Shown: piece by piece, positions 26,601 to 57,091 of the stretch | How positions within the stretch are numbered: the stretch's first letter is position 1 | Layout of the letters: each line of letters opens with the position of its first letter | DNA from: an uncultured Flavobacteriaceae bacterium | Lineage (GTDB): Bacteria; Bacteroidota; Bacteroidia; Flavobacteriales; Flavobacteriaceae | DNA length: 64,000 nt | Reading direction: 5' to 3' | NCBI GenBank assembly: GCA_963697395.1 | Contig: CAVONX010000021.1 | Location: 27,693 to 91,692 of the forward strand | The notes under the pieces: model-generated | Told to the model about the DNA's origin: nothing | Seen by the model: the letters and a program-made list of their open reading frames with translations, nothing else | The model's database searches: none | Made by a program: the position numbers and the translations under genes

Positions 26601-26894
26601 CAAAAGATTAACGACTGGGGACCTTTTGATTATCACCGAGATTTCAACCTAACCTATCCTGTACAATTGATGCTGGATGTATCTACGACGCTTGGCAAAC
26701 CAGATTGGTTTATTTTACCTAGTACCCAAGTGGGAATAAGGGGTACATGGCGATCGTTGGATGAATTTTCTCCGAGATATGCTCCAAATAACGCTTTAGA
26801 ATTTGCCACGGAACCCATTTTAAGTCCGGTTGGGTTTGGAAATGGCAGCGAGTGGGAAATAATGACGTATGTGCACATCAATATCGGGAAATAA
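23694..26894 (+). CDS. secreted clan GH-A (beta/alpha)8 glycosidase fused to a ~640-aa putative outer-membrane beta-barrel
   Basis: 1066 aa with a signal peptide (LFLLLAVSLSGQSANV). The N-terminal ~400 aa carry a clan-A acid/base motif LLGNENNYG and nucleophile motif IMFTEFGADAF. The C-terminal half is Gly/Asn/Tyr/Trp-rich with many alternating amphipathic strands, up to the last residues (EWEIMTYVHINIGK). The GH family is unresolved by eye. Confidence 0.75.
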   Translation: MNMDTILRKLLKPLFLLLAVSLSGQSANVSVVSNEEGMKLVVNGEDFMINGMNWDYIPIGTNTVNANFWTKSDDVIKAGLDTEMSLLKNMGVNVIRQYTGVPAKWIKYIYENYGIYTMLNHSFGRYGLTLDGVWTPVTIYDDEKTAAFLMAEMEELVNGYKNTPGLLMYLLGNENNYGLFWAGAETEDFPDDEEEKNFIGEKRGRPMYRLMNEAAKLMKAADPSHPVAICNGDVLFIDIIAEECKDVDIYGTNTYRGASFGDMFQVVKDKLNKPIMFTEFGADAFNAIDNKEDQYSQAYYMVENWKEIYENAAGLGKAGNSLGGFTFQFSDGWWKFGFDDRKNADVQDNNASWSNGGYARDLAFEGANNMNEEWFGICAKGQTDPRGLYELYPRAAYYALKQAHQLNPYEERVDANFVRNYFANISITDAVLKARGDKAALTSEKSDLLRISNLQAKFSTFSTGGNLLTTPDNANPDDPNTFPNQLGFDRMESYFIGVEGKPAPNMRAEVNVNVVGNVAQNPINEIFYENNSRPLEVNTDQGNVLVQDVNRIRVYQAEFEWNEKEFDLRGFYRTGHYHWGYEGDFFGFYPEANYGPNLDIYNGEILGMEVDGKGALKGLKAAIGPQLWWGANPTMLFKYTTHLGKFGVTGIYHRDFEKDVVLDENGRRTLDINQTRSGVIPPWPTERAALAIEREFGKFGVSLGGIWSGNPLNGISFQDVRGTPGNYVVFEDRIQSTDNWGGKAKITYEGGKFNWYGQAAAMGLIANGGADQTLTFTGWKLKDTGSGNQMNILSGFTYSTGNFQIAPNFLWQKPLVDAMPNDVQGPGRLRNIIDDPFSVRANRETVGGELLLTFDPTPGTWMYEWDNDRSEDAKFAMNLGFVYRHLPTTQDAHIGFLANRTFFAFPNSAPAEDLWEVHTRMVSKPMSDLGLIANLYYGNGQANGDSDRLIRRFGGDVRMLYKKWKVQYTQKINDWGPFDYHRDFNLTYPVQLMLDVSTTLGKPDWFILPSTQVGIRGTWRSLDEFSPRYAPNNALEFATEPILSPVGFGNGSEWEIMTYVHINIGK

Positions 26895-26906
26895 AAAGAT
26901 AGTAAA

Positions 26907-28313
26907 ATGAGAAATAGAAAATATAGCAACGTAGGTTTTATACTTCTTTTTGGTTTGGGCATCATGCTTTTATCCAGTTGCGAAAGGGATTTTTCGGATG
27001 ATGTGGAATTTGCAAAATTCCCTGCAGATGGCGACGTGTTTTTGGATGCTTTTTCAGCAGGATTAGATTATTTTCCTTTTGTTGACGCTGGGGCAGACCC
27101 AGAAGCGTTCAGTGTGGATACGGATGAGGTTTTTGCGGGAGATGCTGCGATGCGCTTTGATGTACCGGCTTTTGGGAACGGTTTTGTTGGGGCCGCATTC
27201 AATACTTCGGCCAAAAGAGATCTCTCGGGTTTTGATGCGCTTACCTTTTATGCAAAGGCTTCACAAGCTGCAACCCTTGATGCCGTTGGGTTTGGTATTT
27301 CAGGTGAAACTAACAATAAATTTCAAGTGACGCTCAATGGTCTGGGAATCAGTACCAGATGGGAAAAATACGTCATCCCCATTCCAGATGCTTCAAAACT
27401 TACCGATCAGACTGGTTTGTTTTGGTTGGCAGAAGGAGCTTCTTTTGAAGGGGACGAAGGTGGTTATGTAGTATGGTTTGATGAAATAAAGTTTGAAAAG
27501 TTGGGTACCGTTGCACAATCAAGCCCTGCCATTTTTGCTGGTGAAGACCTTACAGAGCAATCTTTTACAGGGTCTACCATTGCAGTTAATGGTCTTTCCC
27601 AAACGTTTAACTTGGGTTCAGGCATCAATAGCACAGTGACCGCCGCACCTTCCTATTTTGATTTCACTTCATCTAATATTGAAGTGGCGAGAGTGAGCGA
27701 ACTAGGTGAAATTTCCATTATTGGAGAGGGTACCGTAGAGATAACAGCGCTTTTGGGGGGTGTGCTCGCAGAAGGCTCTTTAACGATAACGGCTAGCAGA
27801 GGTTTAGTAGCGGCACCTACGCCAACATTACCGCAATCCAATGTGAAATCATTGTTCAGTGATGCCTATGTCAACGAAACAGAAATTAATGCCACCCCTG
27901 GTTTTGGAGGCTCAACTACAGAAACAACCATTATTACCGCTAACGAGAACTCATTTTTAACGTACGCAAATAATAATTTCACAGGCATCCTTTTTGAAAA
28001 TACGGTAGATGCCTCTGAATTGACTTTCCTTCATGTTGACGTGTATGTTCAAGAAGCTGGTACCGAAGTTGGCATTCAAATTAGGGATGTGGGGGCAAAT
28101 CAACTAATTGAAACGGACCCTAATACGGGAAATCCCATAGTTGATGATAAAGATTTTAGGTTTACGCTTACAAATTTAACCGCAGGTCAATGGACGTCTT
28201 TCGAAATTCCATTAAGTGGGGATATTGCTGCACAAAAAAATAATCTCGGTGCTTTAATACTAACAGGTGGTCCAAATTTTATTTTGGACAATATATACTT
28301 CTACAAGGAGTAA
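26907..28313 (+). CDS. surface glycan-binding-protein-like lipoprotein (CBM-like, Big_2, CBM-like)
   Basis: 468 aa with lipobox GIMLLSSC|ERD. Two beta-sandwich-like modules flank a Big_2-type Ig segment (ARVSELGEISIIGEGTVEITALLGGVLAEGSLTITA). It has no catalytic motif. It starts 12 nt after the preceding gene. Confidence 0.65.
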   Translation: MRNRKYSNVGFILLFGLGIMLLSSCERDFSDDVEFAKFPADGDVFLDAFSAGLDYFPFVDAGADPEAFSVDTDEVFAGDAAMRFDVPAFGNGFVGAAFNTSAKRDLSGFDALTFYAKASQAATLDAVGFGISGETNNKFQVTLNGLGISTRWEKYVIPIPDASKLTDQTGLFWLAEGASFEGDEGGYVVWFDEIKFEKLGTVAQSSPAIFAGEDLTEQSFTGSTIAVNGLSQTFNLGSGINSTVTAAPSYFDFTSSNIEVARVSELGEISIIGEGTVEITALLGGVLAEGSLTITASRGLVAAPTPTLPQSNVKSLFSDAYVNETEINATPGFGGSTTETTIITANENSFLTYANNNFTGILFENTVDASELTFLHVDVYVQEAGTEVGIQIRDVGANQLIETDPNTGNPIVDDKDFRFTLTNLTAGQWTSFEIPLSGDIAAQKNNLGALILTGGPNFILDNIYFYKE

Positions 28314-28340
28314 TGGGGCCTATCTAAAGTAAAATGTAAG

Positions 28341-29171
28341 ATGAATAGAGAAAATATGAAACAATATAAAAGTATAGTGTTGGGATTCATGGCCATATTT
28401 CTAGTTTGCTGTGAAACGGAAGACACACAGACGGTCACCACATTTACCGAATTGGTCTTAGCCGAAGAATTTGATACGGATGGCCCAGTTAATTCTTCCG
28501 TCTGGGGATTTGAAATAGGAATTGGTGAAAACGGCTGGGGAAATCAAGAACTCCAGTACTACACGGACAGATCTGAAAATGTTACCGTCCAAAACGGAAA
28601 ACTGTTGATTACGGCCCAACAAGAATCTTTTGAAGGCTCCAGCTATACTTCAGCACGGTTGATCACAAAGGATAAGTTTGAACAAAAATACGGTCGTTTC
28701 GAAGCAAGAATCCGTCTCCCTTATGGAAAGGGTATTTGGCCCGCATTTTGGATGCTCGGAGCGGATATTGATGAGAATCCTTGGCCAGGAGCAGGTGAAA
28801 TAGACATCATGGAATATCGTGGGCAAAATCCTTCGGTTTTAATAGGTAGTGTGCATGGCCCTGGATATAATGGCGGAAACGCTATATCCAAAGAGTTTAC
28901 TCTTGAGAATGACCGCTTTGATACGGGCTTTCACATATTTGGAATAGAATGGGGTCCTGAATATATCAATTTTTATGTTGATGATGTTCTGTATAACCAG
29001 ATTACGCCAGAGGATGTAACAGGTCCTTGGGTATTTGACAAGCCCTTTTTTATTTTAATGAATCTTGCTGTTGGCGGCACATTTGTAGGTTCGCCCAATG
29101 CAGAAACGGTTTTCCCTCAGACCATGGTGGTAGACTATGTAAGAGTATATGATTATAACGAACTGTATTAA
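28341..29171 (+). CDS. GH16 endo-beta-1,3-glucanase (laminarinase-type) lipoprotein
   Basis: 276 aa with lipobox AIFLVCC|ETED. The GH16 catalytic motif ExDxxE is present as GEIDIMEYRG, together with WPAFWMLG. Confidence 0.9.
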   Translation: MNRENMKQYKSIVLGFMAIFLVCCETEDTQTVTTFTELVLAEEFDTDGPVNSSVWGFEIGIGENGWGNQELQYYTDRSENVTVQNGKLLITAQQESFEGSSYTSARLITKDKFEQKYGRFEARIRLPYGKGIWPAFWMLGADIDENPWPGAGEIDIMEYRGQNPSVLIGSVHGPGYNGGNAISKEFTLENDRFDTGFHIFGIEWGPEYINFYVDDVLYNQITPEDVTGPWVFDKPFFILMNLAVGGTFVGSPNAETVFPQTMVVDYVRVYDYNELY

Positions 29172-29188
29172 CAATAAACAAAAAACGA

Positions 29189-31510
29189 ATGGAACAATTA
29201 TTTAAAAAAACGAAGCTCCTTTCCCTACTTATCTTGGCAATCTCTTTCCAAGGTTGTGAGGATGATGATGAAGTTTTACCACAAGTTATTGCCGACTTTA
29301 CATATACCCTAAACGAAGATTCGGGAACCATCAGATTTATTAACACTTCGGAAGGAGCCAGTTCCTACAAATGGGATTTTGATAATGGAGAAACCTCTTC
29401 TGAGATCAATCCGGTCAGGACCTTTGAAAATGGCACTTACACTGTGGTACTAGAGGCCTCTAATGTTGCCGGTGCCGCAGCTACGTTTACGGACGAGATT
29501 ACAGTTCAGGTCGATAATCAAACCCCAGAACCAGGTTTTGATGCTGGCCTTTTGACCAATGGTGATTTTGAAACTGGCGATGATCCATGGATAGGTGGAG
29601 GGCGCAATATTGTGACCGAGGGCGGAAACAGTTTCAATTCCGTAGACGTAACTGTAGCGGGGAATCCATTTGACGTAAACCTAAGCCAAATGGTTGAGCT
29701 CACCCAGGGTACAAATTATATTTTGACCTTTGATGCCTCGGCCAGCGTGGCCCGTACCATACTTGCGGGTATTGGTCTGAACGAGGCGCCGTTTACCAGC
29801 ACGGCACCATCGGTGAACCTGACCACGGATACCCAAACCTTTACCTTGCAGCTTGCCGCGAATGACTTTGGCGGTGCAAACAGTCGCGTACTGTTTGATA
29901 TGGGCGCCGAGGTGGGGACCGTTGTGATAGACAACGTGTCCTTGGTTGAAGGTGGAGATGGAAGTGATACCAACGGCGGCGGAACTTTAGACCAAGGAGA
30001 GATTTCCGAAGCGTGTGCCGGAAGTCTGATTCAAGATTACGAAATGGCGGACAACAGTATTTTCAGTGATTTTGGAGGCGGTACGGCCTTGATTATCGAC
30101 AATCCGAATACCGCGGTAAACACGAGCGCGAAGGTTGGACAGATGCAGAAATTTAATGACCAACCTTTTGGGGGAACAACAATGTCCTTGGGGGGAGCGG
30201 TTGATTTTTCCAATGGCGAGATCTTTACAATGGACGTATATTCTCAAAGGGCAGCTGCCTTGACCTTTAAGCTGGAAGGCTTGAACATAGAAAAGGTCAT
30301 TAGCACCGCGGGAACTGGTTGGGAAACCATGACCTTTGATTTTACCGGCGAGACCGGGGCAGTGGACGTATCCGCGATTACTCTTATTTTTGACAATGGG
30401 ACCAATGGGGATGCAGCGGGAGATCCGGATGCGTGGACCTTCTTGTTCGATAACCTAAGACTTTGTGACGGAGGCGGCGGAACTTCAGACCAAGGGGAGA
30501 TTTCCGAAGCGTGTGCCGGAAGTCTGATTCAAGATTACGAAACGGCGGACAACAGTATTTTTGGTGATTTTGGAGGCGGTACGGCCTTGATTATCGATAA
30601 TCCGAATACCGCGGTAAACACGAGTGCGAAGGTTGGACAGATGCAGAAATTTAATGACCAACCTTTTGGGGGAACAACAATGTCCTTGGGGGGAGCGGTT
30701 GATTTTTCCAACGGCGAGATCTTTACAATGGACGTATATTCTCAAAGGGCAGCTGCCTTGACCTTTAAGCTGGAAGGCTTGAACATAGAAAAGGTCATTA
30801 GCACCGCGGGAACTGGTTGGGAAACCATGACCTTTGATTTTACCGGCGAGACCGGGGCAGTGGACGTATCCGCGATTACGCTTATTTTTGACAATGGGAC
30901 CAATGGGGATGCAGCGGGAGATCCGGATGCGTGGACCTTCTTGTTCGATAACCTAAGACTTTGTGACGGCGGCGGTAGCGGCGGCGGTGATTGCCCTGCT
31001 CCTCCAGTGGGAGATTTAATTTCAAATGGTAATTTCGAAGCAGGTGTTGGTTGCTGGCAATTACTTCAGAACGGTGGTACTGTTACACTTTCAACTACAG
31101 AAAGTAATGGAGGTGGTACTAATTCCGCCCAAATTCAAACCGGGCCAGGTGTAAATCCAGGTATTAAACAAGAAAGAGCTGGAGTGGGGGTATATTTACC
31201 CAATACGCAATATACAGTTACATTTGATATTAAAGCTTCAACACCTCTTGCTACTGGAGCTGTCTTTAAGGCATTTACATTTTCAGAAGGTGGCGATGGT
31301 TCTTCAACTCCTGCCACTCAACATATACTTGAAGGAGGACTTGCTACTGTTTCCAATACGTGGGAAACAAAGACCTATACCTTTACATCGGCAGCAAATG
31401 CAGATCAAGTAGCCGGTGGGATTTCATTTTTAGCTGAGCTAGTTTGTGGACCTGCGGGATGCGAAGGTGTTATAAATATTGACAATGTTTCTATTGTGCC
31501 TAACCCATAG
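29189..31510 (+). CDS. multi-domain glycan-binding lipoprotein: PKD, CBM4_9-like, 2 x duplicated 166-aa module, CBM4_9-like
   Basis: 773 aa with lipobox LAISFQGC|EDDD. It has a PKD domain (YKWDFDNGETSSEINPVRTFENGTYTVVLEASN). Two CBM4_9-like modules are present (LLTNGDFETGDDPW...VIDNVSLVEG and LISNGNFEAGVGCW...INIDNVSIVPNP). The central module is duplicated almost perfectly. Confidence 0.8.
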   Translation: MEQLFKKTKLLSLLILAISFQGCEDDDEVLPQVIADFTYTLNEDSGTIRFINTSEGASSYKWDFDNGETSSEINPVRTFENGTYTVVLEASNVAGAAATFTDEITVQVDNQTPEPGFDAGLLTNGDFETGDDPWIGGGRNIVTEGGNSFNSVDVTVAGNPFDVNLSQMVELTQGTNYILTFDASASVARTILAGIGLNEAPFTSTAPSVNLTTDTQTFTLQLAANDFGGANSRVLFDMGAEVGTVVIDNVSLVEGGDGSDTNGGGTLDQGEISEACAGSLIQDYEMADNSIFSDFGGGTALIIDNPNTAVNTSAKVGQMQKFNDQPFGGTTMSLGGAVDFSNGEIFTMDVYSQRAAALTFKLEGLNIEKVISTAGTGWETMTFDFTGETGAVDVSAITLIFDNGTNGDAAGDPDAWTFLFDNLRLCDGGGGTSDQGEISEACAGSLIQDYETADNSIFGDFGGGTALIIDNPNTAVNTSAKVGQMQKFNDQPFGGTTMSLGGAVDFSNGEIFTMDVYSQRAAALTFKLEGLNIEKVISTAGTGWETMTFDFTGETGAVDVSAITLIFDNGTNGDAAGDPDAWTFLFDNLRLCDGGGSGGGDCPAPPVGDLISNGNFEAGVGCWQLLQNGGTVTLSTTESNGGGTNSAQIQTGPGVNPGIKQERAGVGVYLPNTQYTVTFDIKASTPLATGAVFKAFTFSEGGDGSSTPATQHILEGGLATVSNTWETKTYTFTSAANADQVAGGISFLAELVCGPAGCEGVINIDNVSIVPNP
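29975..30970 (+). repeat. in-frame tandem duplication, 2 x 498 bp, near-identical
   Basis: 29975-30472 and 30473-30970 differ at only about 8-9 positions by my reading. Each copy encodes DQGEISEACAGSLIQDYE.ADNSIF.DFGGGTALIIDNPNTAVNTSAKVGQMQKFNDQPFGGTTMSLGGAVDFSNGEIFTMDVYSQRAAALTFKLEGLNIEKVISTAGTGWETMTFDFTGETGAVDVSAITLIFDNGTNGDAAGDPDAWTFLFDNLRLCDGGG. Confidence 0.95.
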
Positions 31511-31611
31511 GACGAACTGATGTTTGATAGTTGAATTACCTATTGGACAGCTTATTACATAAATGATTTTGTTCCCTAACAAATAAAGGAACATCTCTTA
31601 AAAACCAAAAT

Positions 31612-31649
31612 AGGTTGGCATTAAAGCTATTTTTGCCAACCTACTTTTT
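31612..31649 (+). terminator. rho-independent terminator between the two halves of the glucan locus
   Basis: A 9-bp stem, AGGTTGGCA (31612-31620) pairing with TGCCAACCT (31634-31642), encloses a 13-nt loop and is followed by ACTTTTT. Confidence 0.65.
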
Positions 31650-31679
31650 AGATTTAACGAATAAAGGCAGGAATCGTCA

Positions 31680-34600
31680 ATGTCGCAAAAAGAAAATAAT
31701 ATAGATAGTTCTAAAAAAAGGCATATGCAAAAGGAAATTACGTGCAAACTGGTTCGATTTGAAAATGAGAACTACTACAAGATCTCCAATAATGATGCCA
31801 TGAGGCCTTTCTTTATGAGCATTGTTAGTGAATCTAACCATTGGATGTTCATTTCTAGCAATGGCGGATTGAGCGCAGGTAGAAAAGACAGCGATAACGC
31901 GCTATTTCCCTATTACACAGATGATAAGATTACAGAATCTTTTGATACTACTGGTAGTAAAACTATTTTTCAGGTGACTAGTTCTGGCCACAATAGTGCA
32001 TGGGAACCTTTTTCGAATAGATATACAGGTGTTTTCAACATTACCAGAAATTTGTATAAAAATGAATATGGCAATAAAGTTGTTTTCGAAGAAATAAACC
32101 ACGATTTAGGTCTAACATACCAATATCAATGGAATTCAAGTAATCTTTTTGGTTTTGTTAGAAAGAGTAAACTAATCAACCATGCAGAAAGGATTGTTCA
32201 AGTTAAAGTCTTGGACGGAATCCAAAATATTATGCCATTCGGGGTTGCTGCAAGTACACAGCAGGCTAGCAGTAATTTGGTTGACGCTTATAAAAGGAGT
32301 GAGTTGATAAAAGATTCAGGATTAGGGATTTTTGCCCTAAGTGCCATAATTGTGGATAAAGCAGAACCTAGCGAAGCTTTGAAAGCCAACGTAGTATGGT
32401 CGCTTGGTCTTGATAACCCTAAGTTTTTGTTATCTGCCTTACAGTTAGATGATTTTAGATTAGGTAATGACATTAGCGAAGAGGTAGACGTTAAGGCGGA
32501 AAGGGGGGCTTATTTTGCGGTCACCGAAGTGGAGCTTAACAGTGGCAATGAAAAAGAATGGGCAATAGTGGCCGATGTTAATAAAAGCTCGGCAAAAGTT
32601 ATCAGTATTTCTGAAAAAATTAAATCAAAACAATGGGATTGGAAAGCGGTTTTTGAAGATGTTGAATTAGGTACTAAAAATCTTTTAAAACTGGCCAATG
32701 CTTCTGATAGTAAACAGCTTACAGCTGATAAAAGGAGAAATACCCGGCATTATTCCAATGTGATGTTTAATATCATGCGAGGTGGAATTTTTGACAATAA
32801 TTATACTATTGAAAAGGAGGATTTTGTTCAATACATTTCCAAAGCAAATAATAAGGTTTATGATAAAAACATAGAAACTTTAACTAAGCTGCCCCAAACT
32901 TTTGAACAAAAACATTTGAAAGCAATAGCTTTGAAAAGTGATGATAAGGATTTTAGTAGGTTGTGCTTTGAGTATTTGCCGTTAAAATTTAGTAGACGTC
33001 ATGGTGACCCCAGTCGTCCTTGGAATAAGTTTTCTATAAATACGGTTACTGAGGAAGGTAAAAAAGTATTGGATTATGAGGGTAATTGGAGGGATATTTT
33101 TCAGAATTGGGAAGCTCTGGTCCATTCCTATCCAAGCTTCATAGACAGTATGATCTTTAAATTCTTGAACGCAACCACTTTTGATGGTTATAATCCCTAT
33201 AGGGTGACCAAAGATGGTTTTGATTGGGAAACGATTGAGCCAGACGATCCTTGGTCTTATATTGGCTATTGGGGGGATCACCAAATTATCTATTTATTGA
33301 AGTTTTTAGAGTTCAGTGAGAATCATCACCCTGGAAATCTGGTCAATTACCTAAGCAAGAAAATTTTTGTTTATGCCAATGTTCCCTATAAGATAAAGCC
33401 TTATCAAGCTATTTTAAAAAATCCGAAGGATACTATAATTTTTGATGAAGAACAGGATGCTTCAATCCGCGAAGATCGATTGCATCTTGGAGCTGACGGA
33501 GCCTTGTTGAAAAACCCTCAAGCATCTATTTATAAGGTAAACTTACTGGAAAAATTGTTGGCGACCGTTATGGCAAAGGTATCCAATTTTATTCCGGAAG
33601 GAGGTATATGGATGAATACCCAAAGACCGGAATGGAACGATGCCAACAACGCCTTGGTAGGAAATGGGGTTTCTATGGTAACCTTATATTATTTACGGCG
33701 TTTTTTAACCTTTTTCAAGGAGCTTATATCGAATACATCCGATGGCGGACTAAGTGTATCCATAGAGCTTAAAAACTTTTTTGATTCCGTCCTAGGACTA
33801 CTGCAGCAACATACATCTTGTTTAAACAGGAACATCACCAATACAGAACGTAAAACGATTATGGATGGTTTGGGTAACGCGGCAAGTAGCTATCGCTCAA
33901 ATATTTATGATAATGGATTTTCAGCAAAGGAGGGGAATATCGCTAAAAATGAGTTGTTAAGGTTCACGGAATTGGTACTTTTATTTTTAGACCATTCCAT
34001 TAAGGCAAATAAAAGAAGCGACAATTTGTACCACGCTTATAATTTAATGACGGTAGAGAATGACAAGGAAGTTTCTATATCCTATTTATCACAGATGTTG
34101 GAAGGTCAGGTAGCGGCCTTAAGTTCAGGGTATTTATCAGGAATAGAATCGGTACAACTATTGGATGGTCTAAAAAACAGTAAATTATTTAGGGAGGATC
34201 AATATAGTTACTTGTTATATCCCAATAAGGATTTGCCAAAATTTATAGATAGGAATAATATACCTTCAGAAAAAATAGAAAAATCCGAATTGATAAACCA
34301 GTTATTAACGGATGGTAATATCAGTATAGTAGAACGGGATATTACGGGTGGTTATCATTTTAACGGGTCTTTTAATAATGCCGACAGTCTAAAAAATGCC
34401 CTATCTAAATTGCCACAAAGCCAATATGGGGATTTGATAGCAAAGGATGAGGGATTTTTGTTCTCGATTTTTGAATCGATTTTTGATCATAAATCTTTTA
34501 CCGGTAGGTCAGGAACGTTCTATGGTTATGAAGGTTTAGGTTCTATTTATTGGCATATGGTTTCAAAGTTGTTATTGGCCGTGCAAGAGACTTGTTGGAA

Positions 34601-35135
34601 AGCCATTAACGACCAAGAGAGTGAAGAAACCATTGGACGTTTGTTAGAGCATTATTATGAGATTAATGAAGGTATTGGAGTCCATAAATCGCCAGAACTG
34701 TACGGAGCTTTCCCTACGGATCCCTATTCTCATACTCCAGCAGGAAAAGGGGCACAGCAACCAGGAATGACCGGTCAAGTAAAAGAGGATATCCTATGCA
34801 GGTTTGGGGAATTAGGTGTTTTTGTGGAAAATGGGGTTCTTATTTTTAGACCAAGGCTGTTACGGAAAGAAGAGTTCTTGAAAGCTCCGGCCACATTTAC
34901 CTATACTTCATTACGATCAAAAAAGAAGCAGTTGCAACTAGAGAAGCATAGCCTTTGTTTTACCTATTGTCAAGTACCCATAATTTACAAATTATCCGGT
35001 GATACTGGAATGATAGTACAGTTTAACAATGGTAAATTCCTATCATTTAGTGATTTAAAACTTGATGCCTCAACAAGTAACAAGGTATTTGAAAGAACTA
35101 ATGAAATCGAACAAATTATTGTATCGATCAATTAA
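31680..35135 (+). CDS. large cytoplasmic glycan phosphorylase-like protein; candidate beta-1,3-glucan phosphorylase (GH149/GH94-like)
   Basis: 1151 aa with no signal peptide. Its size and locus context match the bacterial GH149-type enzymes reported in laminarin loci. Motifs such as RPEWNDANNALVGNG and PGMTGQVKE resemble the (alpha/alpha)6 phosphorylase catalytic region. The assignment comes from memory of the family and is not a search result. Confidence 0.55.
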   Translation: MSQKENNIDSSKKRHMQKEITCKLVRFENENYYKISNNDAMRPFFMSIVSESNHWMFISSNGGLSAGRKDSDNALFPYYTDDKITESFDTTGSKTIFQVTSSGHNSAWEPFSNRYTGVFNITRNLYKNEYGNKVVFEEINHDLGLTYQYQWNSSNLFGFVRKSKLINHAERIVQVKVLDGIQNIMPFGVAASTQQASSNLVDAYKRSELIKDSGLGIFALSAIIVDKAEPSEALKANVVWSLGLDNPKFLLSALQLDDFRLGNDISEEVDVKAERGAYFAVTEVELNSGNEKEWAIVADVNKSSAKVISISEKIKSKQWDWKAVFEDVELGTKNLLKLANASDSKQLTADKRRNTRHYSNVMFNIMRGGIFDNNYTIEKEDFVQYISKANNKVYDKNIETLTKLPQTFEQKHLKAIALKSDDKDFSRLCFEYLPLKFSRRHGDPSRPWNKFSINTVTEEGKKVLDYEGNWRDIFQNWEALVHSYPSFIDSMIFKFLNATTFDGYNPYRVTKDGFDWETIEPDDPWSYIGYWGDHQIIYLLKFLEFSENHHPGNLVNYLSKKIFVYANVPYKIKPYQAILKNPKDTIIFDEEQDASIREDRLHLGADGALLKNPQASIYKVNLLEKLLATVMAKVSNFIPEGGIWMNTQRPEWNDANNALVGNGVSMVTLYYLRRFLTFFKELISNTSDGGLSVSIELKNFFDSVLGLLQQHTSCLNRNITNTERKTIMDGLGNAASSYRSNIYDNGFSAKEGNIAKNELLRFTELVLLFLDHSIKANKRSDNLYHAYNLMTVENDKEVSISYLSQMLEGQVAALSSGYLSGIESVQLLDGLKNSKLFREDQYSYLLYPNKDLPKFIDRNNIPSEKIEKSELINQLLTDGNISIVERDITGGYHFNGSFNNADSLKNALSKLPQSQYGDLIAKDEGFLFSIFESIFDHKSFTGRSGTFYGYEGLGSIYWHMVSKLLLAVQETCWKAINDQESEETIGRLLEHYYEINEGIGVHKSPELYGAFPTDPYSHTPAGKGAQQPGMTGQVKEDILCRFGELGVFVENGVLIFRPRLLRKEEFLKAPATFTYTSLRSKKKQLQLEKHSLCFTYCQVPIIYKLSGDTGMIVQFNNGKFLSFSDLKLDASTSNKVFERTNEIEQIIVSIN

Positions 35136-35147
35136 GTTAAAAATGGC

Positions 35148-36431
35148 ATGAAGAACATACATCTAAATATAGGAAACATCGCCTTGTTACTATTACTAGT
35201 GATGTTCTCTTGTAAATCCGAGTCAAAAAATGAAAACCAAAAGGAAACCGTGACAGAAAAGAAGAGTATCAGAGCAGCGGAGATTCTTGGGAATCCTGAT
35301 TATTTAGCCATGTCCTACGGGGGATATAGACATGCCGACCATGATATAGAGCCTACCATATCAGAATTGAAAGAGGATATGAAAATCCTCTCGGCCATGG
35401 GCATAAAAATGATACGGACCTATAAGGTGCATCTGCCACATGCGGCCAATGTACTAGAGGCAATTAGTGAACTTAAAAAAGAAGATCCTGCGTTTGAAAT
35501 GTACGTCATGCTTGGTGCGTGGATAGACTGTAAGTACGCGTGGACAGATCAAGAGCCCGATCACGATCAGGAAAGTGAACGCAATGCCGTAGAAATAAAG
35601 GAGACCGTGCGCTTGGCCAAGGCTTATCCGGATATTGTAAAGGTAATTGCCGTGGGCAACGAGGCCATGGTGAAATGGGCGGCAAGTTATTTTGTGCAAC
35701 CTGGGGTTATTTTAAAATGGGTAAATCATCTGCAGGAATTAAAAAAAGCAGGGGAATTGACCGAAGACCTGTGGATTACCAGTTCAGATAATTTTGCATC
35801 TTGGGGTGGGGGAGATGCCGAGTACCACGTAGAGGACTTGAACAAACTTATTGCTGCGGTAGATTTTCTATCCGTGCACACCTATCCTATGCATGATACG
35901 CACTACAACCCAGCTTTCTGGGGTGTGCCGCTAGATGAAATAGCACTTTCCAAGGAGGAAAAAATTGAGGCGTCCATGCTCCGGGCCAAGAAATATGCCA
36001 TCGCTCAGTATCAAAGTGTAAAGGCCTATATGCAAAACCTAGGGATAAACAAGCCCATACATATCGGGGAAACCGGATGGGCAACCATGGCAAGCGGCCA
36101 CTATGGCCCCAATGGTTCTAAAGCTACAGACGAGTATAAGGAAGCCCTTTATTATAAATACATGCGAGATTGGACCAATAGTGAAGGTATTTCATGTTTT
36201 TATTTTGAAGCTTTTGACGAACCTTGGAAAGATGCAGCAAACCCCAGTGGGTCAGAGAACCATTTTGGCTTGATCACGGTAGACGGCCGGGCAAAATTTG
36301 CACTATGGGCTAGGGTAGATGAAGGCATATTTAAGGGCATATCCCGTGGTGGTAAGCCCATAACAAAAACGTATGATGGTGACAGGCAAAAATTAATGAA
36401 AGAAGTTTTACTGCCCCCATCAAAACAATGA
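35148..36431 (+). CDS. GH17 beta-1,3-glucanase lipoprotein
   Basis: 427 aa with lipobox LLVMFSC|KSES. The GH17 acid/base motif is AVGNEAMV and the nucleophile motif is HIGETGWAT. Confidence 0.85.
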   Translation: MKNIHLNIGNIALLLLLVMFSCKSESKNENQKETVTEKKSIRAAEILGNPDYLAMSYGGYRHADHDIEPTISELKEDMKILSAMGIKMIRTYKVHLPHAANVLEAISELKKEDPAFEMYVMLGAWIDCKYAWTDQEPDHDQESERNAVEIKETVRLAKAYPDIVKVIAVGNEAMVKWAASYFVQPGVILKWVNHLQELKKAGELTEDLWITSSDNFASWGGGDAEYHVEDLNKLIAAVDFLSVHTYPMHDTHYNPAFWGVPLDEIALSKEEKIEASMLRAKKYAIAQYQSVKAYMQNLGINKPIHIGETGWATMASGHYGPNGSKATDEYKEALYYKYMRDWTNSEGISCFYFEAFDEPWKDAANPSGSENHFGLITVDGRAKFALWARVDEGIFKGISRGGKPITKTYDGDRQKLMKEVLLPPSKQ

Positions 36432-37975
36432 AAAATCAGATGATACATAAAGATGGAATCATATCAAAAACAAAGGTTTTTGGCGTAGTTCCGGTATTTT
36501 TATTGTTCATTTTTACAGGCTGTATGAAAAGAGTTAATCAGTTGGATATCAAGGTGTACGAAACTTCGGCAAGCGGAAACAAGCTCACTGAAATAACAAC
36601 CTTTCAAAAGGTTAAAGACCCTATAGCCATAAAATTGATTCCAAACGAAAAATACCAAACCATAACAGGTTTTGGAGGGTCTTTTACAGAAGCATCCGCT
36701 TCTTTATTGAACCGGCTGGGTACAAAGAATAGAAACAAGGTTTTAGAAGCCTATTTTGGCAATGAGGGTGCCAAATATTCCCTTACGCGGACGCATATGA
36801 ATTCTTGTGACTTTTCACTAGGTAATTATTCATATGCACCGGTTGAAGGAGATCTGCAATTGGAACATTTTTCGATCAAAGAGGACAAGGACGATATTAT
36901 TCCCATGATACAGGAGGCTATGGCCATTTCAAGGGATGGGTTCAAGATTATTTCTTCCCCGTGGACCGCCCCGCCATGGATGAAGGATAATAAAGACTGG
37001 CGCGGTGGCCAACTGTTGCCCGAATATAGAGATACTTGGGCACTGTTCTTTTCAAAATATTTAGCTGCTTATAAAGCTGAAGGCATCAATATTTGGGGCT
37101 TTACAGTAGAGAATGAGCCCTTGGGCAATGACAGTAATTGGGAAAGTATGCATTTCACGCCCCAGGAGATGACCAGCTTTGTTCAAAATCACTTGGGCCC
37201 GAGATTGGAAGCCGATGGGCATGAAGTTAAGATTTTGGGGTATGACCAAAACCGAGAGCATTTGAAAGGGTGGGTTGATGTGATGTATGAAAATGAAGCA
37301 TCGTCAAAATACTTTGATGGCACGGCCATACACTGGTACGCTAGTACTTATGATGTTTTTCCGGATGCACTACAATATGCACACAACAAAGCACCCTATA
37401 AACACCTAATCCAGACGGAAGCATGCGTAGATGCAGAGGTTCCTAAATGGAAAGAGGATGCTTGGTATTGGAAAAAAGAAGCTACGGATTGGGGATGGGA
37501 TTGGGCACCAGAAAAGGATAAACACCTACATCCTAAATATGCACCTGTTAATAGATATGCTAGGGATATTATAGGTTGTTTGAACAATTGGGTAGACGGG
37601 TGGATTGACTGGAATATGGTTTTGGACAAACAAGGCGGCCCTAACTGGTTCAAAAATTGGTGTGTTGCCCCTGTCATTGTGGATCCAGAAAAGGATGAGG
37701 TCTATTTTACGCCTATTTATTATACTCTGGCACATTTTAGTAAATATATAAGACCGGGTGCCGTGCGTATTGGAGTAGAGAGTGCTTCAGAAGATCTCTT
37801 GGTCACCGCTGCAAAAAATCCAGATGGTTCAATAGCCGTTGTGCTATTTAATGAAGGCAACGAGCCAAAAGGTATAGAATTATCCTCATCTGGGAAGAGA
37901 GTGGGAATTAATATCAATGGTAAGGCTATACAAACAGTGGTCATTCCTAATATAGATAACAAAGAAACCAACTAA
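36428..37975 (+). CDS. GH30 glycosidase lipoprotein (beta-1,6-glucosidase/glucanase type)
   Basis: 515 aa with lipobox LFIFTGC|MKR. GH30 motifs are present: GFGGSFTEASA, acid/base FTVENEP and nucleophile LIQTEAC. An ATGA overlap joins it to the upstream GH17 gene. Confidence 0.85.
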   Translation: MKNQMIHKDGIISKTKVFGVVPVFLLFIFTGCMKRVNQLDIKVYETSASGNKLTEITTFQKVKDPIAIKLIPNEKYQTITGFGGSFTEASASLLNRLGTKNRNKVLEAYFGNEGAKYSLTRTHMNSCDFSLGNYSYAPVEGDLQLEHFSIKEDKDDIIPMIQEAMAISRDGFKIISSPWTAPPWMKDNKDWRGGQLLPEYRDTWALFFSKYLAAYKAEGINIWGFTVENEPLGNDSNWESMHFTPQEMTSFVQNHLGPRLEADGHEVKILGYDQNREHLKGWVDVMYENEASSKYFDGTAIHWYASTYDVFPDALQYAHNKAPYKHLIQTEACVDAEVPKWKEDAWYWKKEATDWGWDWAPEKDKHLHPKYAPVNRYARDIIGCLNNWVDGWIDWNMVLDKQGGPNWFKNWCVAPVIVDPEKDEVYFTPIYYTLAHFSKYIRPGAVRIGVESASEDLLVTAAKNPDGSIAVVLFNEGNEPKGIELSSSGKRVGININGKAIQTVVIPNIDNKETN

Positions 37976-37986
37976 ACTAAAATAGT

Positions 37987-40362
37987 ATGTCAACACAAGA
38001 ACTCGAGGTAAGAAATAAAGTGCCATTTGGCCAAAAGGTGGCTTTTGGGGTAGGCATGTTTGCAAATCAAATGTTTCCTGCTATCCTTGGAATATTTATG
38101 GTAGTCCTTGTACAATCATTCGGTTTTAACGGGTGGTTGTGGTCTCTTGTTTATTTTTTTCCAAGGATTTTTGATTCCATTACGGACCCTATTATGGGCT
38201 TTATTTCCGATAATACCAAATCCAAATGGGGTAGACGGAAGCAGTATGTTTTAATAGGCGCTATTTTAATGGGTGTCGCCTTTACCTTGATGTGGCAGTT
38301 ATATACCGATGATTCCTTACAGTATAATTTTTGGTATTTCTTTTTATGGTCCATTGTATTTTATTTAGGTCTAACATTTTTTAGTGTACCCTATGTGGCT
38401 ATGGGCTATGAAATGAGTGATGATTTTCACGAAAGAACCAATATTATGGCCATTGCTCAATGGATTGGCCAGTGGGCATGGGTTATTGCCCCTTGGTTTT
38501 GGGTGATTATGGATGATCCAGATTGGTTTCCGTCTCAAGACGTTGCTGTTCGCGAATTGGCAGTATGGGTGGCTGTGCCTTGTGCAATTGCTGCCATGGT
38601 GCCCGCTATATTTATTAAAAGTAAATCTACCCTTGAGGAAAATTATGAACCATTGACGGTCTCCAATATTGGTGGTAGTCTTACACAAATTTGGGAAAGC
38701 TTTAAAGATGCGTTTAAAATAGAAGAGTTTAGAAGGATTTGCGGTGCTACTTTTTTGATTTTTAATGCATTTAACACCGTAGCTGCATTAACTTATTTTG
38801 TTATTGTTTATAGGCTATTTAATGGTGATGCCGCCGCCACGGGTATCTGGGTTGCATTATTTGGTTGTATTGGAGCCTTGGGGACAACCTTCATCGTCAT
38901 TCCAGTTGTTGCCTGGATGTCAAAAAAAATGGGCAAGAAAAAAGCTTTCATGTGGGCCCAAGGTATTTCTCTCGTTGGGTATATTATGATGTATTTTCTT
39001 TTTATACCAGGAAAACCTTGGCTTTATATTATTGCACTACCCTTTTTCTCTTTCGGTATAGGGAGTTTATTTACCATAATGATGTCAATGACAGCTGATG
39101 TAATCGATATAGATGAATTGAATTCTGGTAAAAGACGAGAAGGTATTTTTGGTGCTATTTACTGGTGGATGGTTAAAGTTGGCTTTGCAATAGCTGGTGC
39201 GCTCAGTGGTGTAATTATTGGGGTCGTAGGCTTTGATCCAGCATTAGCAACGACGGAACAACAAACAGCAGTTGATGGTCTACATGCGTTCTTCTGCTTT
39301 TTTCCAGCGGTAGGTACTATTATCGCAATGCTCATAATGAAGAATTATGATGTTTCCGAAGAACGTTCAAATGAGATACGTACAGCATTGGACGATAAAA
39401 AAGCAGTAAAGCTTGCTAGTTATGCCAAGATGCGAGAATTATCTGATATCGATTTGAATTTGTTATCGGAGCAGGAGATTAAACTAAAATATCCAAGCTT
39501 TTTCACTACGGCTGTTGACTATGGTAAATTGAGTCATAAAGAGATTAAAAGAGAATTTAAGCGGGTTTTTGAAAACGGAATGACCGGTATTTGTTTTAGT
39601 GCTTACGAACCCGGGCAGTCACCTGGTGATATTATCACGGAACGTCAAATAAGAAAACGTTTAGAAGTGCTAAAGGGACATACCCAGTGGATACGGATTT
39701 TTTCTTGTACCAATGGACACGAACTAATTCCTGGAATAGCCAAGGAACTAGGGTTTAAAACATTAATGGGCGCCTGGATAAGTAATGATTTGGATCAGAA
39801 TCAAAAAGAGATAAAATCTTTGGTTAAACTTATAAATGATGGGGTTGTGGATATGGCTTCCGTTGGTAATGAGGTATTGTACAGAAATGAATTGAATGAA
39901 CAGAACATCATTGAATACATCAATCAAGTTAAAAAGCAAAGCAGTGGAACGCCTATTGGGTATGTGGATGCCTACTACGAATTTATCAACAAGCCAGAAC
40001 TAACTAATGCATGTGACGTTATCTTGGCGAATTGCTATCCCTTCTGGGAAGGGGCAACTGATAAAGTAGCCGGCTTTCACTTACAGGAAATGTATCGTAG
40101 AACCCTTGAAGCCGCAAAAGGCAAAAAGGTTATAATAGCCGAAACGGGATGGCCAAGCAAGGGGCAAACGGTACAAGGAGCACATCCTTCAGAGGAAAAT
40201 GTAATGAAGTACTTCATTAAAACACAGCTCTGGGCGCAAAAGGAACAGGTAGATATGTTTTATTTTGCCTCTTTTGATGAATCCTGGAAAATTCATTCAG
40301 AAGGTTGGGCCGGAACCTCGTGGGGATTATGGGATAAAAACGAAAATTTTAAATTCGATTAG
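37987..40362 (+). CDS. fusion protein: GPH/MFS-type sugar:cation symporter (aa 1 to ~455) plus a cytoplasmic GH17 domain (aa ~515-791)
   Basis: 791 aa. The N-terminal half has about 12 TM helices with GPH-family features (DSITDPIMGFISDNTKSKWGRRKQY). After a ~60-aa linker comes a complete GH17 domain with SVGNEVLYRN (acid/base) and IIAETGWPSKG (nucleophile). Confidence 0.85.
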   Translation: MSTQELEVRNKVPFGQKVAFGVGMFANQMFPAILGIFMVVLVQSFGFNGWLWSLVYFFPRIFDSITDPIMGFISDNTKSKWGRRKQYVLIGAILMGVAFTLMWQLYTDDSLQYNFWYFFLWSIVFYLGLTFFSVPYVAMGYEMSDDFHERTNIMAIAQWIGQWAWVIAPWFWVIMDDPDWFPSQDVAVRELAVWVAVPCAIAAMVPAIFIKSKSTLEENYEPLTVSNIGGSLTQIWESFKDAFKIEEFRRICGATFLIFNAFNTVAALTYFVIVYRLFNGDAAATGIWVALFGCIGALGTTFIVIPVVAWMSKKMGKKKAFMWAQGISLVGYIMMYFLFIPGKPWLYIIALPFFSFGIGSLFTIMMSMTADVIDIDELNSGKRREGIFGAIYWWMVKVGFAIAGALSGVIIGVVGFDPALATTEQQTAVDGLHAFFCFFPAVGTIIAMLIMKNYDVSEERSNEIRTALDDKKAVKLASYAKMRELSDIDLNLLSEQEIKLKYPSFFTTAVDYGKLSHKEIKREFKRVFENGMTGICFSAYEPGQSPGDIITERQIRKRLEVLKGHTQWIRIFSCTNGHELIPGIAKELGFKTLMGAWISNDLDQNQKEIKSLVKLINDGVVDMASVGNEVLYRNELNEQNIIEYINQVKKQSSGTPIGYVDAYYEFINKPELTNACDVILANCYPFWEGATDKVAGFHLQEMYRRTLEAAKGKKVIIAETGWPSKGQTVQGAHPSEENVMKYFIKTQLWAQKEQVDMFYFASFDESWKIHSEGWAGTSWGLWDKNENFKFD

Positions 40363-40382
40363 CGTACTTCAATAGAAATAAT

Positions 40383-41291
40383 ATGTCATATAGAGAAGGT
40401 CATCATTTTACCCTTGCCAAGAACAATTATAGCGGGCATACGGGAGTAGATTTTAATAAGGTCACAAATAGCGGGCTAAAGGATTTATGGTTAGAAACCT
40501 TGCAAAATGGAATGCACGGGCTTTGCTTTAGCATGTATGAGGACGGGCAAAAACCAGGTGATATCATCACCGAAGAACAAGTGGCCCGACGTATAAAAAT
40601 AATTAAGCCCTACACAAAATGGGTCCGCTCATTTTCTTGTATTGAGGGCAATGAACATATTCCGAAAATCGCTAAGGAAAATGGACTTAAAACCATGGTC
40701 GGGGCTTGGTTAAGTGAAGATTTAGAACTTAACGAAAAAGAGATGGAGGGGTTGATTGCCCTTGCCAAGTCAGGTTATGTTGATATTGCTGCGGTGGGTA
40801 ACGAAGTGTTGTACCGTAACGATTTAACTAAAGAACAGTTGTTAGGGTATATACAGCGCGTTAAAGATGCACTTCCGGATGTTGAGGTTGGGTATGTAGA
40901 TGCCTATTATGAATTTTCGGTACATCCAGAATTGGTAGACGCTTGTGATGTTGTATTATCTAACTGCTATCCTTATTGGGAGGGTTGTCCGCAAGAGTTT
41001 TCCTTAAATCATATGCAACAGATGTATGGTCAAGCAACCGATGCGGCAAGAGGTAAAAAAGTTGTTATTACGGAAACAGGTTGGCCCAGTCAAGGGGAAA
41101 GTCTCCGTGGTGCTCATTCCTCCAAGGAAAACGCCATGAAATACTTTATCAATAGTCAAGTTTGGTCGGAAAAAGAAAATGTTGAAATGTTTTATTTTTC
41201 CTCTTTTGATGAGTCCTGGAAAATAGGAGATGAAGGAGAAGTTGGTGCCTATTGGGGCTTATGGGATAAACATGAAAAATTGAAGTTTTGA
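40383..41291 (+). CDS. cytoplasmic GH17 family protein (stand-alone paralog of the transporter-fused domain)
   Basis: 302 aa with no signal peptide. It has AVGNEVLYRN and VITETGWPSQG and is collinear with residues ~520-791 of 37987..40362. Confidence 0.85.
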   Translation: MSYREGHHFTLAKNNYSGHTGVDFNKVTNSGLKDLWLETLQNGMHGLCFSMYEDGQKPGDIITEEQVARRIKIIKPYTKWVRSFSCIEGNEHIPKIAKENGLKTMVGAWLSEDLELNEKEMEGLIALAKSGYVDIAAVGNEVLYRNDLTKEQLLGYIQRVKDALPDVEVGYVDAYYEFSVHPELVDACDVVLSNCYPYWEGCPQEFSLNHMQQMYGQATDAARGKKVVITETGWPSQGESLRGAHSSKENAMKYFINSQVWSEKENVEMFYFSSFDESWKIGDEGEVGAYWGLWDKHEKLKF

Positions 41292-41595: not shown

Positions 41596-42399
41596 ATGTA
41601 TGTGTATAATATGAATTTGATTAACCCTGCGTATGCAGGGTCTAATGAAACGACAGATTTAGGTGTAAATATTCGAAGCCAATGGTCCAATGTAAAAGGT
41701 GCACCTGAAACCCAAAGTTTTATTTTTGGAACACCAGTTGGTAAAAATCTTGGCTTAGGCTTGTCCGTAATAAGCGACAAAACCTTTATTGAAAAACAAA
41801 CTTCAGTAGCTGTTGATTTTTCGTATCATTTAAAAGTAACCGACCAACATGATTTATATTTAGGACTAAAAGCTGGTTTTAATTCCTATAATGCAAATAC
41901 GGATGGTTTGCTTACTTATGGACTTCATCAAGATCCTAATTTAATGAATATAAACTGTAGGTTTAATCCTAATTTTGGTGCTGGCGCTTATTTAAACTAT
42001 GAGGACTATTTTTTATCGTTTTCAATTCCTAAAATTTTAACCAATGATAGGCTAGAAGAGGAAAATGGTATTGCACGTACTGGTACTGATAGACAACATG
42101 TATATTTAGCAGGGGGATATAATTTTCCATTAAGTAAAAATACCGTATTGAAACCTAGTGTTTTATTTCGTTATGTAAATGCATCACCATTATCGGTTGA
42201 TGTAACGGCTATTTTAGAATTAAACAGCAACTTTGATTTAGGTGCCGCCTATAGAATAGATGAAAGTTTTAGTGGATTAGCGATTTTTAATATTTCAAAC
42301 AATATTAAGATCGGGTATGCTTATGAAGTTTCAGTTCAGAGTTCCGTTAGATATATTGATAACGGTACTCACGAAATTATGTTAAGATTGCAATTATAA
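41596..42399 (+). CDS. PorP/SprF-family T9SS membrane protein, apparently 5'-truncated
   Basis: YVYNMNLINPAYAGSNETTDLGVNIRSQWSNVKGAPETQSF is the conserved PorP/SprF N-terminal block. The frame is open upstream to TGA 41527 and encodes the tail of a signal peptide (KIQSLLAVTGATAQQVLNYT), but it has no start codon. Confidence 0.65.
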   Translation: MYVYNMNLINPAYAGSNETTDLGVNIRSQWSNVKGAPETQSFIFGTPVGKNLGLGLSVISDKTFIEKQTSVAVDFSYHLKVTDQHDLYLGLKAGFNSYNANTDGLLTYGLHQDPNLMNINCRFNPNFGAGAYLNYEDYFLSFSIPKILTNDRLEEENGIARTGTDRQHVYLAGGYNFPLSKNTVLKPSVLFRYVNASPLSVDVTAILELNSNFDLGAAYRIDESFSGLAIFNISNNIKIGYAYEVSVQSSVRYIDNGTHEIMLRLQL

Positions 42400-52914: not shown

Positions 52915-53889
52915 TTATTGTGCCTGCGTCTGGGTCTGAGTTTTATTTTGAGTAGCGAAAAAGGAATCGTAAAGACCAATGGAGACCTCGTTCAATTGTT
53001 TTTGAAACTCGTCTAGGTATTCATGAAGTCCCTTGACGTAAATATCTTCAATGGTTACAAATTCGAGCGTAGCTTTTAATTTTCCTAGTTGCTTTTCGGC
53101 ATCACAAGTAAAGCCTCCGTTACTTCCCGTAATTTCTTGTAGTGATTTTTCTGCCTGTATCAAACAACATAAAATCGATCGTGGGAACCGTTGGTCTAAA
53201 ATTAGAAATTCCGTGATATTAAAAGCTGTCAACTTCCCGTATTTTTTTCGGTACATATCATAGGCACTTACCGATTTTAGTAAGGCTGCCCATTGCATAA
53301 GATCTCTTGAACTACCTACGTCTTTGGGTGTTGCCAACAAAATATGATACTTCACATCTATGACGCGTGAGGTTTTGTCCGCTCGCTCAATGAGCTGACC
53401 GATTTTTCCAAAATGCCAGCCATCGTTTCTAGAAATTGTGGCGTCAAAAATACCGTAAAGGAGTTGGCAATCTTCCCTTATTTTTTTGAAGAATGCCCTG
53501 GGATCGCTGCTTTTCCATAGTTTTTGTTCCAATCCGTCCTTTACGAAAAAATGAATCGCGTTTATTTGTTCCCAAACTTCCTTAGTAATTTCTGGTCGTA
53601 TGGCCCTAGCATTCTCCCTTGCATTTAGGATACAATTGTATATGGAGTTCGGGTTTTCCGGGTCAAAGCCTAAGAAGTAGATAACTTTGTTCTTACTAAC
53701 CTTTTCATATAAAGACTCGTACATGGGCCAATCCCCGGTTATTGCCACTAGTGGTTTCCATTGCTCCTCTGCATCTGGTGGCGATTCTAAAGAGAGATTA
53801 AAATTCACATCCATAAACCGGGCGTAATTTTCCGCCCGCTCTATGTACCTGTTCATCCAATACATGGTATTCGCAACTCTACTCAGCAT
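52915..53889 (-). CDS. alpha-E domain protein (DUF403-type)
   Basis: 324 aa. MLSRVANTMYWMNRYIERAENYARF is the canonical alpha-E N-terminus. The protein is all-helical and lies downstream of a circularly permuted ATP-grasp gene. Confidence 0.8.
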   Translation of the reverse strand: MLSRVANTMYWMNRYIERAENYARFMDVNFNLSLESPPDAEEQWKPLVAITGDWPMYESLYEKVSKNKVIYFLGFDPENPNSIYNCILNARENARAIRPEITKEVWEQINAIHFFVKDGLEQKLWKSSDPRAFFKKIREDCQLLYGIFDATISRNDGWHFGKIGQLIERADKTSRVIDVKYHILLATPKDVGSSRDLMQWAALLKSVSAYDMYRKKYGKLTAFNITEFLILDQRFPRSILCCLIQAEKSLQEITGSNGGFTCDAEKQLGKLKATLEFVTIEDIYVKGLHEYLDEFQKQLNEVSIGLYDSFFATQNKTQTQTQAQ

Positions 53890-54046
53890 ATTTTGTCTTC
53901 TGGTTAATGGTTAAAATCCTGCTCCCGACCTTTCCGGATAGTGCAGTTATTTAAGTTTCTGTATACGTATCATTTTCAAGAGATATTCGTTTGTTCGGAT
54001 TTGTTTCTCGCTAAAATCAGCAAATCAATAACAGCATAATTTATTT

Positions 54047-57004: not shown

Positions 57005-57091
57005 AGGTAGGCTTAATTTTCTAACCCTTGAAGTTAGTCATAATTATGGGATGAATTGGAGAAGTAAACTTTAGTTGGAAGAGTTACTACA

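Follow-up and report, generated by a model that had tools for sequence, protein, structure and literature searches.

The stretch of DNA analysed here comprises 64,000 nucleotides from an uncultured Flavobacteriaceae bacterium (GenBank assembly GCA_963697395.1, contig CAVONX010000021.1, positions 27,693 to 91,692; hereafter the window) and encodes a sugar transporter fused to a glycoside hydrolase family 17 (GH17) domain. The fusion gene (37987..40362, + strand; 791 aa) consists of a GPH/MelB-type cation symporter module with 12 transmembrane (TM) helices (aa 1-455, 37987..39351), a tether predicted to be cytoplasmic, in which an amphipathic helix (aa 458-472) is followed by a variable low-confidence segment (aa 456-507 in all, 39352..39507), and a GH17 catalytic domain of the clade called type A below (aa 508-791 plus the stop codon, 39508..40362). 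After 20 bp, on the same strand, follows a free-standing GH17 gene (40383..41291; 302 aa), the last gene of the operon, which encodes a single domain of ~300 aa without a signal peptide and predicted to be cytoplasmic. The fusion protein matches the Pfam family MFS_2 over aa 20-457 (E 5.9e-64, 216.6 bits, cut-off 27). With the Pfam GH17 profile (PF00332) the fused domain scores 41.3 bits and the free GH17 42.7 bits, both above the cut-off of 28.2, and the match to this plant-centred profile is confined to the C-terminal third. A gapless alignment of the two GH17 domains covers 283 aa with 54 % identity (E 2e-125). An earlier reading made from the letters alone (the sequence-only reading) had described a permease joined to a full GH17 domain with intact catalytic motifs, followed by a signal-peptide-less GH17 more than half identical to it; the two open reading frames (ORFs) had been placed exactly, and the description agrees with the profile matches and the alignment. 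The linker, put at ~60 aa by that reading, measures ~55 aa from the end of TM helix 12 (TM12) at ~aa 451 to the start of the homology with the free GH17 at aa 508.

No inactive catalytic residues were found. The acid/base E629 (39871-39873, in the motif GNEVLY) and the nucleophile E719 (40141-40143, in AETGWP) of the fused domain, and E141 (40803-40805) and E231 (41073-41075) of the free GH17, are invariant across an alignment of 245 related domains. They are the counterparts of Glu133 and the nucleophile of MlGH17B from Muricauda lutaonensis, and of Glu99/Glu189 of RmBgt17A from Rhizomucor miehei. Both proteins also carry the Tyr136/Trp191/Glu192 triad of MlGH17B, as Y632 (39880-39882), W687 and E688 in the fused domain and as Y144, W199 and E200 in the free GH17. 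The fused domain is modelled as a GH-A-type (beta/alpha)8 barrel, with strands and helices alternating from aa 517 in the AlphaFold2 (AF2) model and a Foldseek match to 4wtr (target-normalised TM-score (TMt) 0.85, root-mean-square deviation 2.7 Å). Judged by the gapless identity of the two domains, the free GH17 probably shares this barrel. Activity on beta-1,3-glucan is attributed to both window enzymes by analogy with their orthologs.

The N-terminal half of the fusion has the MelB fold (Foldseek TMt 0.82-0.84 with 4M64 and 7L16), and the window protein runs colinear with MelB from aa 16 to aa 464-471. At 18 % identity the two share the 12-TM fold and four key positions: R60, D63, D67 and K397 correspond to R52, D55, D59 and K377 of MelB in the phmmer alignment and are invariant in 52 fusion proteins. 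D63 and D67, the acidic pair of the cation site on helix II, align with the sites mutated in the D55C and D59C MelB entries. Asp124 of MelB is Ser133 in the window protein, and MelB, the prototype of the GPH family, lacks a C-terminal enzyme domain, unlike the window fusion. The score with TIGR00792 'gph' is 182.4, below the curated cut-off of 231.35. Sequence and model suggest that the carrier is a functional cation symporter whose two termini lie inside. The full-length AF2 model, built from 52 homologs (per-residue confidence (pLDDT) 82), contains 12 membrane helices, a TIM barrel from ~aa 517 and, beyond the end of TM12, the conserved amphipathic helix; aa 474-484 of the tether have a pLDDT below 50. 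When Lys and Arg were counted on the loops between the AF2 helices, 13 fell on the predicted cytoplasmic side and 1 on the predicted periplasmic side. Past aa 470 the hydropathy scan revealed no hydrophobic segment (maximum KD19 0.92). Since the carrier has 12 TM helices and its N- and C-termini are placed inside, the fused GH17 domain is, with strong support from sequence and model, predicted to be cytoplasmic.

Upstream of the two genes, all on the + strand, lie genes for a Y_Y_Y/LuxR-like regulator (20641-23430), a GH2-like protein of 1066 aa with only a weak GH2_C match (23694-26894), a 468-aa protein without a Pfam match (26907-28313), a GH16 (28341-29171), a CBM4_9/PKD protein (29189-31510), a GH149 beta-1,3-glucan phosphorylase (31680..35135), a GH17A-type endo-beta-1,3-glucanase (35148..36431) and a GH30 (36428..37975), the regulator, the GH16, the CBM4_9/PKD protein and the GH30 (259 bits) being assigned by Pfam. 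The GH149, which the sequence-only reading had called phosphorylase-like, scores 1787 bits with NCBIfam NF058639 (cut-off 1150), carries no signal peptide and is predicted to be cytoplasmic. The GH17A-type enzyme, the third GH17 of the locus, matches the Pfam GH17 profile, has an N-terminus (…LLLLLVMFSC) with a lipoprotein signal and is predicted to be periplasmic; it is ~22 % identical to the fused domain and to the free GH17, and its position is kept across the compared loci (L001-L085). The GH30 has a lipoprotein-type N-terminus as well (…FIFTGC). It had been proposed that two of the three GH17 domains are cytoplasmic, and this agrees with the topology of the fusion (an even number of helices with the C-terminus inside), the signal-less free GH17 and the lipoprotein-type signal of the third. 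The 1066-aa and 468-aa genes (23694-28313) have the sizes and the place of a SusC/SusD pair, yet they are not SusC/D by Pfam; laminarin induces their Formosa counterparts FORMB_24670 and FORMB_24680, which are entered as 'GH2 family' and hypothetical, respectively.

From 23694 to 41291 the gene order of the window is that of polysaccharide utilisation locus 1 (PUL1) of Formosa sp. Hel1_33_131, FORMB_24670-24750. In that locus a GH2-like protein (FORMB_24670), a hypothetical protein (FORMB_24680), a GH16 (FORMB_24690) and a PKD protein (FORMB_24700) are followed by GH149 (FORMB_24710), the GH17 FbGH17A (FORMB_24720), FbGH30 (FORMB_24730), an MFS-GH17 protein recorded with 12 TM helices in the cytoplasmic membrane (FORMB_24740) and a laminarin-induced GH17 without signal peptide, predicted to be cytoplasmic (FORMB_24750) (PMC6246565, supplement). 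FORMB_24740 is FbGH17B, a GH17 behind an N-terminal 12-helix MFS domain, for which coupling of hydrolysis and uptake was proposed and whose fusion was found by BLAST to be 'common among marine Flavobacteriia' (Unfried et al. 2018; PMC6246565). FbGH17A is endo-acting, FbGH17B releases glucose, and FbGH30 is a beta-1,6-glucosidase which debranches laminarin (PMC6246565). The window fusion and FbGH17B (AOR29491.1) share their architecture and their slot, after GH149-GH17A-GH30 and before the free GH17, and the MFS part encoded in a Formosa-type locus (P0263, L081) shares 78 % identity with that of the window. The fused GH17 domain of the window is, however, only 54 % identical and belongs to a separate clade, and the window's linker has a 12-aa insertion compared with the fusions called type B below. 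The sequence-only reading had tentatively supposed that MFS-GH17 fusions had been noted in marine Formosa laminarin loci, and this is correct: the fusion architecture, the adjacent genes and the paralog behind it have all been published for Formosa (PMC6246565). The arrangement of the fusion and the free GH17 is already known since 2018.

The fusion is widespread. Full-length homologs of 778-805 aa with the same architecture form at least 120 clusters at 90 % identity, in genera including Maribacter, Namhaeicola, Lutimonas, Lutibacter, Yeosuana, Costertonia and Kordia; the linker is homologous among them, and finished genomes, among them Maribacter aestuarii CP107031.2 and Kordia algicida OT-1, carry the fusion. 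In M. aestuarii (L085) the same operon encodes a fusion 96 % identical to that of the window, which therefore most probably stems from a Maribacter closely related to this species. Free-GH17 orthologs have a near-constant length of ~302 aa and 73-93 % identity. When 80 genomes, the species representatives carrying the free GH17, were surveyed, the operon GH149-GH17A-GH30-transporter-GH17 was conserved in them, with the transporter fused in 37 and unfused in 43. The unfused transporters are mostly of a different GPH lineage, ~45 % identical. Four loci (L003, L011, L012 and L063, at ~6300-10000) have two tandem GPH transporters ahead of the free GH17, one of the ~45 %-identical lineage and the other an unfused carrier of the fusion type, 75-81 % identical; no GH17 remnant was found in the ~700-bp gap between these tandem MFS genes. 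In a Saprospiraceae metagenome-assembled genome (MAG) (L046, 7899-9987), the MFS is encoded in one ORF and a type-A-like GH17, whose Tyr position is taken by Phe, in another that overlaps it; either this long-read MAG has a frameshift here or the fusion is truly split. Seven loci (L007, L008, L018, L021, L022, L040 and L063) have a second free GH17 behind the first, of the same clade, ~296 aa long and with the Tyr kept, which brings those operons to three or four GH17B-type domains.

In a neighbour-joining tree the 245 aligned domains fall into three near-pure clades with mutual identities of 52-55 %: a free clade (91 members) and two clades of fused domains, type A with the motif EGWAGTSWG (55 members), to which the window's fused domain belongs, and type B with HHEGDVG (99 members). 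The clades differ at the third residue after the acid/base Glu, which is Tyr in 89 of the free domains, Tyr (50) or Phe (5) in type A, and mostly Leu (41), Met (40) or His (13) in type B. Among the species-representative genomes type A is the rarer form, with 4 loci against 33 of type B. The equivalents of the Tyr at this position, Y632 in the window, are Tyr136 in MlGH17B and Tyr102 in RmBgt17A. In RmBgt17A the mutations Y102A, W157A and E158A fully abolish transglycosylation, and W157F retains ~14 %. Type A keeps the full Tyr/Trp/Glu triad as well as a Pro at the -3 subsite (GQSPGD), as in MlGH17B, whereas type B has Ile or Val there. Beyond the Tyr position only 11 columns carry clade-specific substitutions, and none of these 11 is a known substrate-contact residue. 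For FbGH17B a Met has been reported in place of Tyr136, and the fusion in the Formosa-type locus, recognised by the diagnostic Mg-chelatase gene downstream, has GNETLM and HHEGDVG and is of type B. On this published Met and on locus L081, rather than on its own sequence, FbGH17B is assigned to type B, and so the sole assayed fusion would be a type B enzyme. The A/B split and the chimeric fusion gene described below were absent from the publications consulted.

Compared with its relatives, the fusion gene of the window is a chimera, and its symporter module is 90-92 % identical to the MFS part of type B fusions. Over aa 1-~455 it is 90-98 % identical to carriers of type B fusions (Maribacter arenosus, Namhaeicola litoreus), and from ~aa 460 onwards its identity to those fusions falls to 25-55 %, while over the same stretch identity to type A proteins climbs to 70-82 %. 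The carriers of other type A fusions are only 65-68 % identical to that of the window. Sliding identity places the switch at the end of TM12, aa ~455-470, at the start of the tether, and the chimera is common to the window, the MAG locus L027 (7544-9943), P0001 and M. aestuarii (L085, 7605-9980). A switch at this point, shared by relatives, indicates that a linker-plus-GH17 cassette was exchanged by recombination. There is no shift in GC content across the breakpoint (0.390 vs 0.392). The common pattern in the A and B linkers weakly favours a single original fusion.

MlGH17B (WIW39500.1) is a cytoplasmic beta-1,3-glucanosyltransglycosylase without signal peptide, which releases laminaribiose and makes beta-1,6 transfers; it shares 53 % identity with the FbGH17B domain and is encoded in the operon slot of the free GH17 (PMC11005184, PMC13188888). 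The window's free GH17, an ortholog of FORMB_24750 and of MlGH17B, occupies the same last slot, likewise lacks a signal peptide, is of similar length (302 vs 295 aa), keeps Y144/W199/E200 and shares 72-77 % identity with the Flagellimonas (= Muricauda) orthologs in L004 and L009. By analogy with this ortholog it is a putative MlGH17B-type transglycosylase. The MFS upstream in Muricauda is unfused and of the other, ~45 %-identical lineage, and the window additionally has the fused GH17. The closest solved structure to the fused domain is that of RmBgt17A (PDB 4WTP/4WTR; 4wtp E 3.6e-30, 4wtr 28 % identity), a GH17 beta-1,3-glucanosyltransferase which has the catalytic Glu pair and the Tyr102/Trp157/Glu158 equivalents in common with it but differs in being secreted, single-domain and fungal, and in its low identity.

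Carriers with soluble extensions, and GH17 modules acting inside the cell, have parallels elsewhere. In LacS and RafP a GPH carrier is extended at its cytoplasmic C-terminus by a soluble IIA-like domain; the add-on of LacS is regulatory, whereas that of the window is catalytic. NdvB/Glt1 combines a GH17 transglycosylase module, which works intracellularly, with a GT2 glucan synthase in one fusion protein, although NdvB is biosynthetic and, unlike the window protein, has no transporter fusion.

The observed domains, catalytic residues, synteny and conservation of these sequences make it highly probable, in our judgement, that the two genes form the cytoplasmic back end of a conserved flavobacterial laminarin-utilisation cluster, a module that Formosa sp. 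Hel1_33_131 has as its PUL1. In such a system the periplasmic lipoproteins GH30 (debranching) and GH17A (endo-glucanase) would cut laminarin to short beta-1,3-oligosaccharides, and the cation-coupled GPH/MelB-type symporter would move these over the inner membrane. As the cytoplasmic C-terminus of the symporter would bear a catalytically intact GH17 on a flexible tether of ~50 residues, imported oligosaccharides would meet the enzyme at the transporter exit, and the soluble MlGH17B ortholog and GH149 would complete the processing in the cytoplasm. Uptake-coupled processing, as suggested by the sequence-only reading, agrees with the in-silico evidence and was likewise proposed by Unfried et al. 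(2018); the part of it that concerns a physical or kinetic coupling of transport and catalysis is something we infer only.

Several points weigh against this interpretation. The AF2 model has a pTM of only 0.59 with a low-confidence linker, which leaves a defined docking of the GH17 on the transporter unsupported, and because the inter-domain arrangement is not confident we make no claim on an interface. No SusC/SusD pair adjoins the cluster, the tested ORFs at 11-47 kb having no Pfam match to TonB_dep_Rec, Plug or SusD; the pair could lie outside the window. The original description speaks of 'simultaneous cleavage … and sugar transport' with the membrane side unstated, and FbGH17B was assayed after refolding from inclusion bodies (PMC6246565). 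The window's type A domain is, moreover, only ~52-54 % identical to the assayed FbGH17B clade and differs from it at the Tyr/Met position, so that the exo-glucosidase activity of FbGH17B is not simply transferable to the window.

That the fusion could be an assembly or frameshift artefact joining two genes was considered, given that 43 of the 80 related genomes have an unfused transporter ahead of the free GH17 and that the Saprospiraceae MAG has the two parts as separate ORFs. It was rejected as exceedingly improbable: the same fusion occurs in finished chromosomes, with 96 % identity in that of M. aestuarii, at least 120 independent clusters of 778-805 aa share it together with a homologous linker, and the unfused transporters are mostly from the other lineage. 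Plant and fungal GH17 enzymes are secreted, and on that general ground the GH17 domain might be thought to be periplasmic, so that oligosaccharides would be cut to glucose first and the MFS would import the product. This arrangement is very improbable and was likewise rejected, as it is contradicted by the even number of 12 helices, a linker without an extra hydrophobic segment, the positive-inside count of 13 vs 1, the colinearity with MelB, which has cytoplasmic termini, and the lack of a signal peptide in both the 54 %-identical free paralog and MlGH17B.

A rival with more weight leaves the cytoplasmic location as it is and concerns the reaction: the fused type A domain may be a transglycosylase resembling MlGH17B and RmBgt17A, and not an exo-glucosidase like FbGH17B. 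Both cytoplasmic GH17s would then disproportionate oligosaccharides and GH149 would harvest the longer beta-1,3 chains, analogous to MalQ/MalP. The residues Y632, W687 and E688, whose equivalents in RmBgt17A abolish or strongly reduce transglycosylation when mutated, are kept; the Tyr is found in 50 of the 55 type A domains, compared with Met, Leu or His in the FbGH17B clade; and the Pro at the -3 subsite is that of MlGH17B, unlike type B. The glucanosyltransferase as closest solved structure and the GH149 encoded next door favour the same view. However, type A is no closer to the transglycosylase clade than to type B (~52 % in both cases), the ratio of hydrolysis to transfer is not set by one residue, and the beta-1,6 links formed by MlGH17B would be neither lengthened nor broken down by a beta-1,3 phosphorylase. 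On balance we consider a transglycosylase possible but rather doubtful. A joint interpretation goes further, with type A as a tethered transglycosylase, type B as a glucose-releasing hydrolase, the cassettes exchangeable, and a MalQ/MalP-like route with the free transglycosylase and GH149; clades A and B would be old, and exchange would have occurred at the end of TM12 as in the lineage of M. aestuarii, the window and L027. This combination we regard as unlikely.

The remainder of the window contains other features. Directly downstream of the laminarin cluster are a PorP/SprF (type IX secretion) gene and a GH109 (41596-42399, +), and M. aestuarii has other genes at that position. Cadherin-domain proteins are encoded upstream of the cluster (11033-14217, +), followed by an AT-rich, ORF-poor region (14218-18171; GC 33 % vs 38.8 % for the window), whose sole long ORF (15080-16387, 435 aa) has no Pfam match; Rfam and tRNA scans of the window, this region included, gave no matches. 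Nearer the start of the window, an H-NOX (haem-NO-binding) gene precedes one for a multi-PAS histidine kinase (762-3270, -), the two being a putative pair for sensing of NO or O2, and two tandem paralogous TPR and LytS-type histidine kinases of 730 aa precede a LytTR response regulator (4800-10004, +). Towards the other end lie two sets of circularly permuted ATP-grasp and Alpha-E genes with a transglutaminase-DUF2126 protein (52915-63885, -). Within them the ORFs 59459-60547 and 57985-59685 overlap by ~230 bp, and the match of the latter to the ATP-grasp profile starts at profile position 210, which suggests that the gene is split or has a frameshift.

Laminarin ranks among the largest oceanic carbon fluxes, and the gene module described here is how many bloom-associated Flavobacteriia consume it. 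Although its design is unusual, the fusion was already published and assayed in 2018, when it was also found to be widespread, and the window is therefore a further example and not a discovery. What the present analysis adds is in-silico support for a cytoplasmic location of the fused domain, the membrane side having been left open by the original paper, the division of the fusions into two clades which differ at a residue controlling transglycosylation, and evidence of the swapping of enzyme cassettes between transporters. These additions point biochemists to the variant to assay next.

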